From Anaerolineales bacterium (GTDB lineage: Bacteria > Chloroflexota > Anaerolineae > Anaerolineales > UBA11579): a stretch of DNA of 64,000 nt. The notes beneath the pieces are model-generated. The model saw only the letters and a program-made list of their open reading frames with translations, was not told the origin of the DNA and ran no database searches. Positions 43,883-49,479 of this stretch are shown here, one piece after another (within the stretch, counting starts at the first letter, position 1; each line of letters starts with the position of its first letter). The DNA is taken from contig JBBEBI010000038.1 of assembly GCA_040882365.1 (NCBI GenBank), forward strand, positions 2,678-66,677, written 5' to 3'. Position numbers and translations under genes: made by a program.

Positions 43883-44910
43883 ATGGCGCGAAAACCAACC
43901 ACATCTTCCATAACTATCCGAGATGTCGCACGCCAAGCGGGGGTATCTGTGGCGACTGTGAGTCGCCACATTAACGAGACCGCCCGAGTTTCCGGACCCG
44001 TGGCGGAACGGATCGAAGAAGTCCTCAACCGCTTGCAGTACAGGCCGCATACAGCCGCTCGCCAATTGGCTACTCAGAAAGTGATGGCGATTGGCTTGTT
44101 GCTGAATAGCATTTACAAAGATTTCTTCGGGCCTCTTTTGTGTGGAATTGAGGATCTTGTCCAACAGAACGGTTACAACCTGTTAGTTGCCACCAACCGG
44201 CCAGAGCGGCGCCAGGGTGTTTCCCAGCTTTGGGACCTCACAACGTTGACGGGTTGCTGGTTTTCGCAGACAGCTTGAGGGACTCTGAATTAGCCAGCCT
44301 GCACGGCCAAAAACTGCCCATGGTACTTATCCATCGCTCCAGCCCCGAAGGCCTGGATATGCCCTGCGTCACGGTCGAAAACAAGGCTGCCACATTCCAG
44401 CTGATCGAGCACCTGATCACCAAGCACGGGCGCAAGCGCATCCTCTTTATGCGCGGCAAGGTGGGCCAGGAGGACTCCTATTGGCGCGAGATCGGGTACC
44501 GCGCAGCGCTCGAAGCGCATGGGATTAAATTCGATCCCGAGTTGATGCTTCCCGGTGATTTCCAGCGCGACGTGGCCTATCTATCCATGCGTGACTTTCT
44601 ATCCCGGCCAAAACGCAAGAATTTCGATGCCGTGTTCAGCGGCGACGATTCAGCCGCCATTGGCGTTTTGAAAGCCCTGGAACAGGGCGGATTGCGCGTC
44701 CCACAAGACGTATCTGTAGCCGGTTTTAATGATTCCCGCCATTCTGCCTTCCTTAACCCGCCGCTAACCACCATAAACGCACCTGCCCATGAAGTGGGGC
44801 GCATTGCGACCAAGAATCTGTTCAACCAGATTACCCATCACCCAGTCGATAGCATCACGCTTCTACCCACGGAGATCATAATCAGACAGTCTTGCGGGTG
44901 CACCAGTTAG
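43883..44910 (+). pseudogene. LacI-family regulator, frameshifted (real or sequencing error)
   Basis: TIRDVARQAGVSVATVSR HTH in ORF 43883-44278; ligand domain (VDGL...D..AIG...VP.DVSVAGF.D...PPLTT...IIRQSCG) in ORF 44230-44910; shift near 44220. Confidence 0.85.
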
Positions 44911-46511: not shown

Positions 46512-46679
46512 ATGCCGCGCGGTTCGGAATTAATCATCATTTTGATCATAATTATCCTTGTATTTGGGGTGGGCAGGCTCAGCAAGCTTGGCGAGGACCT
46601 GGGTAAGGGCATTCGCTCTTTCCGCAAGGGGTTATCGGGGGAAGAAGAGCCAAAGGACGAAGAAAAGAAACCCAAGTAA
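46512..46679 (+). CDS. tatA: Sec-independent translocase TatA
   Basis: Manual translation (55 aa, below the ORF-track cutoff): MPRGSELIIILIIIILVFGVGRLSKLGEDLGKGIRSFRKGL...; SD AGGAG. Confidence 0.93.
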   Translation: MPRGSELIIILIIIILVFGVGRLSKLGEDLGKGIRSFRKGLSGEEEPKDEEKKPK

Positions 46680-46754: not shown

Positions 46755-47834
46755 GTGAAGAAGCTACATGCTGTGTATATTGTCTTTATATTGGCCAGTC
46801 TTGTGCTAACAGCCTTTGTTGTTCCTGGCCAGGTCGTCGCCGGGCCACAGTCCACCGGCGAGAAGCAAGGCCGCGGTGGGGAATGCCTGGGCACGGCCGA
46901 GGATGCGATTGTAGACCTGGATTGTCGTGAGGTAACCATCGCTATCGAGAATGCTTATTTGCCTTTCAACTATATCGACGAGGCAACCGGCGAAGCTGGC
47001 GGTTGGGACTATGATGCCTGGGAGGAAATCTGCACCCGCTTGCACTGCACTCCTGTATTCGTTGAAGCCGCTTGGGAAGGCATGATTCAGGCTGTGGCTG
47101 ACGGCCAGTATGACGCCGCGGCCGATGGCATCACCATCACACCCGATCGTGACGAGATCGTCGATTTCTCGGTCGGCTATGTGGCTATCGAGCAACGTCT
47201 GCTCGTTCGCATCGATGAAACCCGAATTAACAGTATCGAGGATATCGTGAACTCTGCTCCGAGCGGAGCAATCTCGGTAAACCAAATTCTCATTGCGGCT
47301 GTAATTGCTGTTCTTGCTATTGCGGCTATTCTGTTCGCTGAACGGTACGTGGCGGCAAGCTCTCGTGGAATGTTCCGCTGGGTCGGGGTTGCGTTGGTGC
47401 TTATCGTGTTGGTAGGTTATTCAGTGTGGCCACGCCAAAGTTGTCCTACTTTAGCCCTTGGCACTCAAACGGGTACAACCAACTACGAAACCGCCTCACA
47501 GTATCTACCTGCGGCCTGCATCCAGGCCTTTGAGCAGTTCCCCTTTGCCGTTCAGGCTTTGATTGCCGGTGATATCGACGCGGTGATCATTGACGAAACC
47601 GCCGGCCAGGGTTACTTGGGCGCCAATGCAGAGGATCTGAAGCTTGTGGGCCCGTCGCTGTCCAGCGATCAGCTTGGTTTCATCTTCCCGCCTGGCAGCA
47701 ATTTGATAGATCCCGTCAATCAGGCTTTGGAATCCATGATGGATGATGGCAGGCTCAATGAGCTCAACGCCATCTACTTTGGCTCAGATTTCAACTGCGA
47801 TTACACGGACACGGGTATCACCTGCGGCAGCTAA
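46755..47834 (+). CDS. Polar amino-acid ABC substrate-binding protein (family 3) with an internal two-TM insertion
   Basis: ENAYLPFNY, GWDYD, W..MI.AV..GQYD...GITITPDR...VDFS, GTQTGTT and AL..GDIDAVI.D motifs; GTG start after AAGGAGG. Confidence 0.88.
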   Translation: MKKLHAVYIVFILASLVLTAFVVPGQVVAGPQSTGEKQGRGGECLGTAEDAIVDLDCREVTIAIENAYLPFNYIDEATGEAGGWDYDAWEEICTRLHCTPVFVEAAWEGMIQAVADGQYDAAADGITITPDRDEIVDFSVGYVAIEQRLLVRIDETRINSIEDIVNSAPSGAISVNQILIAAVIAVLAIAAILFAERYVAASSRGMFRWVGVALVLIVLVGYSVWPRQSCPTLALGTQTGTTNYETASQYLPAACIQAFEQFPFAVQALIAGDIDAVIIDETAGQGYLGANAEDLKLVGPSLSSDQLGFIFPPGSNLIDPVNQALESMMDDGRLNELNAIYFGSDFNCDYTDTGITCGS

Positions 47835-47866: not shown

Positions 47867-47899
47867 GCGGTGCAGAATCGTTGTAGGATTCTGCACCGC
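47867..47899 (+). terminator. Intergenic hairpin after the binding-protein gene (terminator or mRNA stabiliser)
   Basis: Perfect 13-bp stem GCGGTGCAGAATC/GATTCTGCACCGC followed by TTGTTT. Confidence 0.7.
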
Positions 47900-47921: not shown

Positions 47922-48746
47922 ATGGCCGTAGACCCCGTTTCTAGAGGCACCGAGCGCGGGGCCATTTCGTTAGAACAAAGGCCCGATCCGCTGACCGGCA
48001 AACTCTACGCGGTGCCCTGGTGGCTTCTCGCTGTCATGGGGGTTTTGATCTGGGCTTGGTACTTCATTTTTTCCGAAATGAGCTATCGTGACGCCTTCGA
48101 ATTCATCATTCAAGGCATCTGGATCACTGTTGTCACCACGCTATCTGCCTACGGGATTGCGATGGTCATTGGCCTGGTGATGGGATTGGGGCGCGTTTCG
48201 CGGAATGTGGTTTTTAGGAACATTGCCAGGTTCTATGTGGAAGTGGTTCGCGGTATCCCCATGCTTGTGCTCATTTTTTACGTAGCTTTTGTGGCTGTGG
48301 TGGATTTCGCCGGTTTACTTGGCTTGGATGGTCGTGACATCCCGATGAACATTCGCGCTATTATTGCCTTGGCGATCACCTATGGGGCATTCTCGGCCGA
48401 AATCTTCCGCGCTGGTATCCAATCCATCGGGAGTGGCCAGATGGAAGCGGCTCGCTCGCTGGGGATGAGCTATGGTCAGGCTATGCGTTACATTATTCTC
48501 CCCCAGGCCATTCGCAATGTGCTCCCGGCTTTGGCCAACGACTTCGTGGCCATGCTGAAGGATTCTTCGCTAGTCTCTGTGCTGGCCGTGCGTGACATTA
48601 CCCAGGTGGCCCGCTTGCATGCTGGGTCCACGTTTCGATTTCGCGAATCATACACAATCTTGGCGGTACTCTACCTCAGCATGACCTTGTTGCTTTCCGC
48701 AGGAGTGCAATTGCTCGAGAGGCGGCTACATGTCGGCCACAAATGA
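47922..48746 (+). CDS. Amino-acid ABC transporter permease
   Basis: [34 protein letters not shown] and KDSSL motifs. Confidence 0.95.
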
Positions 48747-49479
48747 CACCATTATCGAGGTCAAGGAACTCCACAAGCATTTTGGAAAAGTGAAGGCGCT
48801 TTGCGGCGTAAGCGTCAGTGTTGCGCGCGGCAGCGTAGTGGTGATTGTGGGTCCCAGCGGGTCCGGTAAATCCACTCTGCTACGCTGTATCAACCATCTT
48901 GAAGTAGAGACTGCTGGAGAGGTCTGGGTGGATGGACAGCGGCTGAATGAGAAGAATAAAAATATCAATGAGATTCGTGCCGAGATCGGCATGGTGTTCC
49001 AGTTATTCAATCTCTTTCCGCATCTGACCGCCCTGCAAAACATTGTTTTGGCTCAACATATCGTTCGGGGGCGGTCCAAAGAAGAAGCCGAGCAGGTCGC
49101 CCGGCAGCAACTGCAGCGCGTAGGAATATCCGAAAAAGCGGATGTTTACCCCGGCCAGCTTTCCGGCGGCCAGCAGCAACGGGTGGCGATTGCCCGCGCC
49201 CTGGCCATGAATCCCAAGATCATGCTCTTCGACGAGCCTACCAGCGCCTTGGACCCGGAGATGATCAAAGAGGTCCTTGATGTAATGCTCGACTTGGCCA
49301 AAGAGGGGATGACCATGGTGGTGGTGACCCACGAAATGGGCTTCGCCCGTGCCGCCGCCGACCGGGCCATCTTTATGGATCAGGGACTCATCGTTGAAGA
49401 GGGAACCCCCGACCAATTGTTCATACAACCCGTTCAGGAACGGACTAAGCTCTTCCTTTCCCAAATCTTGAAACACTAA
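48730..49479 (+). CDS. Amino-acid ABC transporter ATP-binding protein (GlnQ-like)
   Basis: [27 protein letters not shown] and THEM motifs. Confidence 0.96.

Follow-up and report, generated by a model that had tools for sequence, protein, structure and literature searches.

Ionotropic glutamate receptors (iGluRs) and GluR0 are built on a family-3 clamshell whose second lobe is interrupted by a membrane segment with its entry and exit on the same side, and their membrane region is homologous to an inverted K+ channel. According to the available sections of a preprint (bioRxiv 10.1101/2021.01.27.428399), the membrane part of GluR0 with its linkers comprises residues 139-255 (117 aa), and a bacterial substrate-binding protein (SBP) grafted on the GluR0 pore gates it only after a dimer interface has been added. 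In cells that lack an outer membrane, SBPs carry a lipid tether or form a fusion with the permease (available text of PMC6906923), and archaeal SBPs are held by a C-terminal helix or a class III signal (available text of PMC3387779). In PGAP4, a eukaryotic GPI-GalNAc transferase, a soluble fold harbours a tandem transmembrane insertion, according to the accessible part of PMC5785973; that fold is GT-A, unrelated to the one considered here, and the comparison is by analogy only.

The window analysed here is a stretch of 64,000 nucleotides from the genome of an Anaerolineales bacterium (G000). It encodes an amino-acid SBP, P0002, which differs from other family-3 binding proteins in having 63 extra residues in lobe 2, predicted to form a membrane hairpin, and in lacking a lipobox. 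The known SBP tethers are comparable in that they retain the protein at the membrane without an outer membrane. As far as they are described in the available text of PMC6906923 and PMC3387779, however, they are terminal or fusion anchors, whereas the hairpin of P0002 lies inside the fold.

A family-3 binding protein with an insert in lobe 2

The gene, its binding stretch and the genes behind it are arranged as follows.
46755..47834, plus strand: family-3 (PF00497) amino-acid substrate-binding protein P0002 with a mid-fold hairpin insert (359 aa, GTG start)
47133..47150, plus strand: conserved amino-acid backbone-binding stretch Thr127-Arg132 (sequence alignment)
47867..47899, plus strand: 13-bp GC-rich stem-loop between the binding-protein gene and the permease gene (sequence)
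47922..48746, plus strand: polar amino-acid ABC permease (PF00528 and TIGR01726 over cut-off)
48730..49479, plus strand: GlnQ-like ABC ATPase (profile match, adjoining genes)

P0002 matches the PF00497 (SBP_bac_3) profile over residues 60-343 with 107.8 bits, against a curated cut-off of 26.4. Its AlphaFold2 model (mean pLDDT 83) has a two-lobed type II PBP fold that superposes on GlnBP (8eyz_A) with Z 26.4 and an rmsd of 1.8 over 221 of 226 residues, and Foldseek agrees. Across the family-3 cluster F proteins (GlnBP, ArtJ, LAO and AncCDT-1) the likeness in fold amounts to Z 24-26 with an rmsd of ~2 and extends to the binding residues. The original prediction depended on the binding fold being able to form around the insert, and the monomer model indicates that it can, with the binding residues kept. 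Thr127, Arg132, Thr241, Thr242 and Asp280 (codon at 47592-47594), all of which we take to be amino-acid binding residues, are invariant in 26 of 26 aligned sequences, and the ligand-pocket residues were aligned to those of AncCDT-1 and AncQR. None of the NCBIfam ligand-specific profiles exceeded its cut-off for P0002, the best being LAO with 110.8 of 256. P0002 is expected to have kept the ability to bind an amino acid, basic or polar, and to pass it to the adjoining permease and ATPase.

Those two genes follow intact, as had been claimed, and the permease has the architecture seen in insert-less relatives, with no carrier-specific change. The insert-less Anaerolineae orthologues, which are up to ~90% identical to P0002, likewise stand in an operon with a HEQRo-type permease and a GlnQ-like ATPase. 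Given that the P0002 gene is the only PF00497 gene of G000 and that its permease is like those of the insert-less relatives, a transport role is the default. The stem-loop is possibly an mRNA stabiliser or attenuator. A TatA-like ORF of 55 aa, recognized by eye, lies directly upstream of the binding-protein gene (46512-46679). The second PF00497 proteins of congeners (380-430 aa) were considered as GluR0 candidates and rejected; they are lipoproteins, presumably AapJ-like. Amino-acid ABC operons of the type found in congeners at L087-L093, which we take to be AapJ/AapQ-like, were not found in G000.

The insert and its parts are these.
47253..47450, plus strand: in-frame insert S167-T232 (alignment with 23 insert-less homologues)
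47277..47348, plus strand: predicted membrane helix 1, residues 175-198, putatively running out to in (AlphaFold2, hydropathy)
47340..47375, plus strand: basic loop and start of helix 2, residues 196-207, predicted cytoplasmic (sequence, hydropathy)
47355..47426, plus strand: predicted membrane helix 2, residues 201-224, putatively running in to out and hydrophobic from 208 (AlphaFold2, hydropathy)
47442..47444, plus strand: Cys230 at the exit junction of the insert (alignment of carriers)
47517..47519, plus strand: Cys255 (Arg here in 250 of 258 motif matches)

The 66 residues stand in place of 3, and the flanking motifs are 107 residues apart, versus 44 or 43 in all 287 of the insert-less domains counted. 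Close non-self matches in 61 related genomes were, without exception, broken at residues ~166/232 into adjoining pieces. Kyte-Doolittle (KD) hydropathy over 19 residues peaks at 177-195 (2.85) and 206-224 (2.07), and the loop region between the helices holds three to four K/R and one D/E. The original prediction of an in-frame insert of ~66 aa at these positions, with two hydrophobic helices and a short basic loop, is borne out by the alignment, the hydropathy peaks and the modelled helices. On the basis of hydropathy, charge and homology, the insert is predicted to cross the membrane twice. A crude hydropathy screen of G000 gave five candidate mid-protein hairpins, that of P0002 among them.

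The same insert occupies this site in three diverged proteins: P0122, which is partial, P0123, and P0109, whose overall identity to P0002 is 76%. Between the full-length carriers, three in number, identity is 29-42% over the insert, versus 87-96% for the core. The N-terminal linker of the insert is Gly/Ser-rich and differs in length by up to four residues among carriers. An S-R-G-x-x-R-W-x-G motif in the loop (within residues 196-207) and a Trp-Pro after helix 2 are invariant in four of four carriers.

A mis-assembly would have produced both junctions artificially, a concern raised with the original prediction. Run X1, perhaps the one from which the assembly came, yields a single 13-kb contig that covers this region in full at a depth of 16.2 with no joints and spans both junctions, and the left junction is also bridged by a contig of run X4, from another study. 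At the DNA level the right junction is bridged by X1 alone, which leaves some room for an artefact, but both junctions are common to the three diverged orthologues. The insert is real on this evidence. The conservation of the core likewise speaks against a dying gene, and we consider either explanation, mis-assembly or decay, extremely improbable.

Probable origin of the hairpin in an OppB/DppB-like permease

A whole-protein search with P0002 gave a weak second match in its own genome, the hairpin of a permease on contig C16.
G000:C16:23078-24232, minus strand: OppB/DppB-like permease P0166 (L027) with an extra helix pair of ~60 aa
G000:C16:23504-23701, minus strand: likely donor hairpin in P0166 (own-genome copy), residues 176-241 (HMM homology)

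The depth of C16 co-varies with that of the window across four runs (18.9 versus 16.2 in X1; 2-5 in the others). An HMM of the insert only, run over 12,011 ORFs, scored the own OppB hairpin at 31.2 bits, the next match at 12.5 and the best reversed ORF at 9.7. In the reciprocal search, an HMM of seven foreign OppB hairpins returned the own OppB first and then four of four inserts (16.1-18.9 bits), with the next match at 10.5. The hhalign probability of insert against OppB hairpins was 91.8% without the own copy and 95.5% with it, ungapped, compared with 0.3-1.4% for other OppB helices and 4.0% for seven AapQ-type permease hairpins. Local shuffling, which leaves the pattern of hydrophobic residues in place, reached the observed insert-OppB pair scores in 0-8 of 1000 trials. 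Insert and P0166 hairpin align without gaps over 48-55 columns, with 17-18 of 52 residues identical. Searches with the insert gave six non-self matches in 400 class genomes, five of them this OppB hairpin, and two in 400 order genomes, one this OppB hairpin and the other a histidine-kinase hairpin.

Hydrophobic sequences may inflate such scores, and the likeness might then be one of convergence; the reciprocal HMM, the shuffles and the controls of the same architecture favour homology instead. We conclude that the insert and the accessory out-in-out hairpin of an OppB/DppB-like permease subfamily are very probably homologous. The two share the order helix-basic loop-helix. The copy in P0002 differs in sitting within a soluble binding fold and in its newly acquired S-R-G and W-P motifs. 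A tree built from 15 hairpins unites the four inserts in one clade (100/99), indicating one common origin, and this clade is sister to the own OppB hairpin (91/92).

The own-genome copy is the likely donor, but several observations weigh against it. The branch is long (1.12); DNA identity between insert and donor is 73-75 of 156 bases, near saturation, with no repeat or recombination scar seen; a histidine-kinase hairpin matches at E 4.3e-5; and one AapQ-type hairpin reached 14.3 bits. AapQ-type hairpins were nevertheless rejected as donor on their hhalign probability of 4.0%, and the cognate permease, being unchanged, was rejected as the source of a helix pair. The histidine kinase (L028:295-1680, in G131) has an N-terminal helix pair whose loop is like the motif of the insert; this may be chance or a second use of the same hairpin.

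E. coli DppB lacks an equivalent of residues 176-241 of P0166, which fall in the loop between the two aligned blocks, and the extra helix pair is also missing from other solved DppB homologues. From DppB topology, we take this loop to be extracytoplasmic. The model of P0166 repeats the helix-turn-helix of the insert, with helices at 182-207 and 212-237 at pLDDT 75-91 (mean for the whole model 65), and the second helix lies below the KD threshold of 1.6. The OppB/DppB-like subfamily with this hairpin was found in 10 of 101 relatives and, within the genus (23 genomes), in G000 only.

Lipobox loss and the role of the hairpin

Two features at the N-terminus of P0002 bear on how the protein is held.
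46755..46841, plus strand: hydrophobic signal peptide, residues 1-29, without a lipobox Cys (KD peak at 6-24, 2.53)
46815..46817, plus strand: Phe21 (TTT, a single base away from TGT) at the position of the lipidated Cys of relatives (alignment)

The first Cys of P0002 is residue 44, and the protein has no bacterial-lipoprotein lipobox. Judged by eye, signal peptidase I might cleave after Ala29. Among 23 translated relative loci of 24 (L022 was missed by the motif), the insert occurs in none and the lipobox Cys in 22. We classified 186 sequences for the lipobox, setting aside 11 that are N-terminally truncated or start with another domain and two truncated carriers. Of 169 insert-less relatives whose N-termini are intact, 168 have the Cys (166 matched the pattern and two more have Cys boxes outside it), versus none of three distinct full-length carriers (four records in three clusters). 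One protein, L025, is full length and without insert, yet lacks the Cys. The original prediction was thus right that the lipid-anchor Cys is absent, and insert gain and Cys loss do co-occur, a correlation that it had proposed to test by aligning homologues. Because the set is redundant and kin are not independent, these counts stand for one hairpin origin and one or two Cys losses, not for a statistic.

A general loss of lipidation was considered as the cause and rejected. LspA and 75 lipobox-like ORFs remain in G000, which is 88% complete. Lgt (PF01790) was not found in this 88% complete genome and is present in 22 of 22 congeners, with 2-5 matches each in several; G012, near-identical to the host of locus L030 (which encodes P0123), has it. 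The missing Lgt is likelier an assembly gap. A search of the same 88% complete genome for Omp85 found none, and this, with LspA and the lipobox-like ORFs, leads us to expect a tether for the binding protein.

We therefore favour a protein anchor as the role of the hairpin: derived from a permease, it would probably replace the lipid anchor of the binding protein of an ordinary ABC importer. An in-frame recombination would have put the out-in-out hairpin of the permease into a surface turn of lobe 2, leaving both lobes outside. With a protein anchor present, the lipobox would become dispensable and be lost, probably twice because the N-termini of P0002/P0109 and P0123 differ. If the signal peptide is cleaved, the hairpin would be the sole tether; if kept, it could form a third helix. 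In one branch a disulfide at the exit junction would brace the structure, and the allele would have moved between congeners by homologous recombination. Fast evolution of the insert relative to the core is as expected of an anchor. Weighing against this reading, the lipobox correlation reduces to the single hairpin origin with at most two Cys losses, L025 has lost the lipobox with no insert, and an uncleaved signal peptide alone might hold the protein at the membrane.

This last point can be taken further, with the uncleaved signal peptide as the true anchor and the hairpin a tolerated passenger. The h-region of the signal is strongly hydrophobic in P0002, unlike that of P0123 (below 1.6), and L025 provides an instance of lipobox loss without insert. 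The insert has, however, kept its hydrophobic pattern and its frame despite low identity in four proteins from at least two lineages. A passenger hairpin, or an OppB likeness that arose by convergence, is accordingly very unlikely.

The invariance of the S-R-G-x-x-R-W-x-G and W-P motifs may point beyond plain anchoring. One possibility is that the hairpin packs on the cognate permease dimer, so that the binding protein is docked in advance as a membrane subunit, with a function like that of the SBP-permease fusions GlnP or OpuA. A donor that is itself a permease element would fit, as would motifs held in all four carriers while the rest of the insert diverged, and the Cys230/Cys255 pair would fix the geometry. 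On the other hand, the donor comes from a different permease family, the cognate permease shows no change specific to carriers, and the permeases of carriers group with those of their insert-less sisters. We regard docking as unlikely.

Cys230 and Cys255 are present together in P0002 and P0109 only, that is in two of four carriers. That they were gained as a pair is suggestive of a disulfide at the exit junction, hence of an extracytoplasmic position for that junction. Two VKOR genes in G000 support disulfide formation. Other Cys pairs of P0002 (residues 44/57, 93/98 and 348/357) are gained or lost jointly across relatives, which suggests that the orthologue group consists of disulfide-rich surface proteins. 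Proteins of 520-590 aa in which a single lipobox precedes two tandem family-3 domains occur in many Anaerolineae relatives, e.g. L024 (in G030) and a protein of G029.

The original prediction went further than anchoring, in likening the topology to that of iGluRs and in supposing that ligand-induced closure might be transmitted across the membrane. The likeness holds for the gross plan, a family-3 domain whose modelled lobe 2 is split, as between S1 and S2, by two predicted membrane helices; it fails in site, length, filter and donor. The PF10613 match on P0002 ends at residue 152, and the S1 end of GluD1 aligns near 152-154. Full-length GluD1 chains cease to match P0002 at 159, and most ligand-binding-core constructs reach 163-165. 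The hairpin starts at 167 and so lies ~13 residues downstream of the iGluR site, rather than the roughly 10 first estimated, and away from the S1 end. The absence of a pore loop and of a GYG filter, also noted at the outset, is confirmed: in place of the M1-pore loop-M2 arrangement the insert has a loop of ~10 residues, with no GYG and no channel Pfam match, and its helix sequences have no polar pore-lining residues. Its 66 aa compare with the 117 aa given for GluR0 in the available sections of bioRxiv 10.1101/2021.01.27.428399. The donor in GluR0 and iGluRs was a K+ channel, and in P0002 it would be an ABC permease hairpin. The claim that the insertion is independent of theirs therefore gains support from the different site, the OppB/DppB-like homology and the missing pore loop, and P0002 is not a member of the GluR0/iGluR family, which it resembles in plan only.

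Signalling or gating by a hairpin pulled on ligand closure, alone or as an oligomer in the manner of a proto-iGluR, would draw on this GluR0-like plan and the nearness of the iGluR site; Cys230/Cys255 could stiffen one linker, and a bacterial SBP is able to gate the GluR0 pore once grafted onto it (available sections of bioRxiv 10.1101/2021.01.27.428399). In the same sections, however, a bare fusion without the ligand-binding-domain (LBD) dimer interface does not gate, and P0002 has neither re-entrant loop nor filter in its shorter insert. A Gly/Ser linker of variable length and a fast-evolving insert are also unfavourable, as are the lack of a cytoplasmic output domain on the short loop and of an adjacent sensor gene. 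With a sole PF00497 gene and an unchanged permease besides, transmission of closure across the membrane is left unsupported, and we hold it to be highly doubtful. A broader proposal is that P0002 represents a recent re-run of the first step towards glutamate receptors, with a membrane module taken from a second transporter and lodged in lobe 2 of the clamshell, fixed, disulfide-braced and spreading sideways among species as a mobile anchor allele, and with a hairpin coupled mechanically to closure or docked on the permease as a subunit or proto-receptor; we consider this unlikely.

Under the anchor reading that we prefer, a hairpin inside the fold would add a mode of anchoring for ABC binding proteins that we did not find in print: no SBP anchored in this way is described in the titles and abstracts of the non-subscription papers searched. 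Both parents are extant, namely the insert-less lipoprotein orthologues and, in the same genome, the likely donor permease. With both at hand, the conversion of a soluble into an integral membrane protein by domain insertion, usually untraceable, becomes directly testable. Lobe 2 of family-3 proteins would have taken a membrane insertion for a second time, independently, near the iGluR/GluR0 site, which bears on the ease with which such receptors could arise.

Distribution and probable spread of the hairpin allele

The clade is small, comprising four protein clusters, and the everyday function of P0002 is probably modest. Word-limited searches by profile and by region across 5.8 billion proteins gave no carrier beyond the same four clusters, and none was found in 22 congeners, 400 order genomes and 400 class genomes. 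A metagenome scan returned L030 and L031 only, both of the P0123 cluster, and the ESM Atlas neighbours align by their flanks alone (64-68 of 131 residues). Single matches in the genome_contigs and viral_contigs sets (L046 and L094) were rejected as chance wrong-frame matches, and P0160 as a fish protocadherin repeat.

The locus of P0123, L030, is syntenic with that of P0002, and its host belongs elsewhere among the congeners. In the ComM tree (13 of 21 rows, the other eight, from more distant congeners, being missed by the motif), G000 pairs with the insert-less G004, and L030, with G012, groups with the insert-less G008 and G022; G012 is labelled a carrier by 99% ComM identity alone. An AU test on this tree rejects a forced grouping of the carriers (p 1.2e-5). 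In the permease tree (12 loci) each carrier stands with an insert-less sister (100/99), in the same pairs as ComM. For the core of the binding protein, in contrast, carrier monophyly is not rejected (p-AU 0.13 for DNA, 0.20 for protein); the carrier state changes twice on the core tree, and the starred branches force only one change.

These trees suggest that the hairpin allele likely spread between lineages by recombination. What moved in this way would be either the hairpin by itself or the complete allele, unless the hairpin was lost precisely several times. A single hairpin origin has to be reconciled with patchy hosts, and transfer needs fewer events than repeated precise loss.

The two loci also differ upstream of the binding-protein gene. 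A LacI-type regulator, missing at the same position in L030, was recognized by eye in the window over two overlapping ORFs (43883-44278 and 44230-44910), and its split at 43883-44910 suggests a frameshift.
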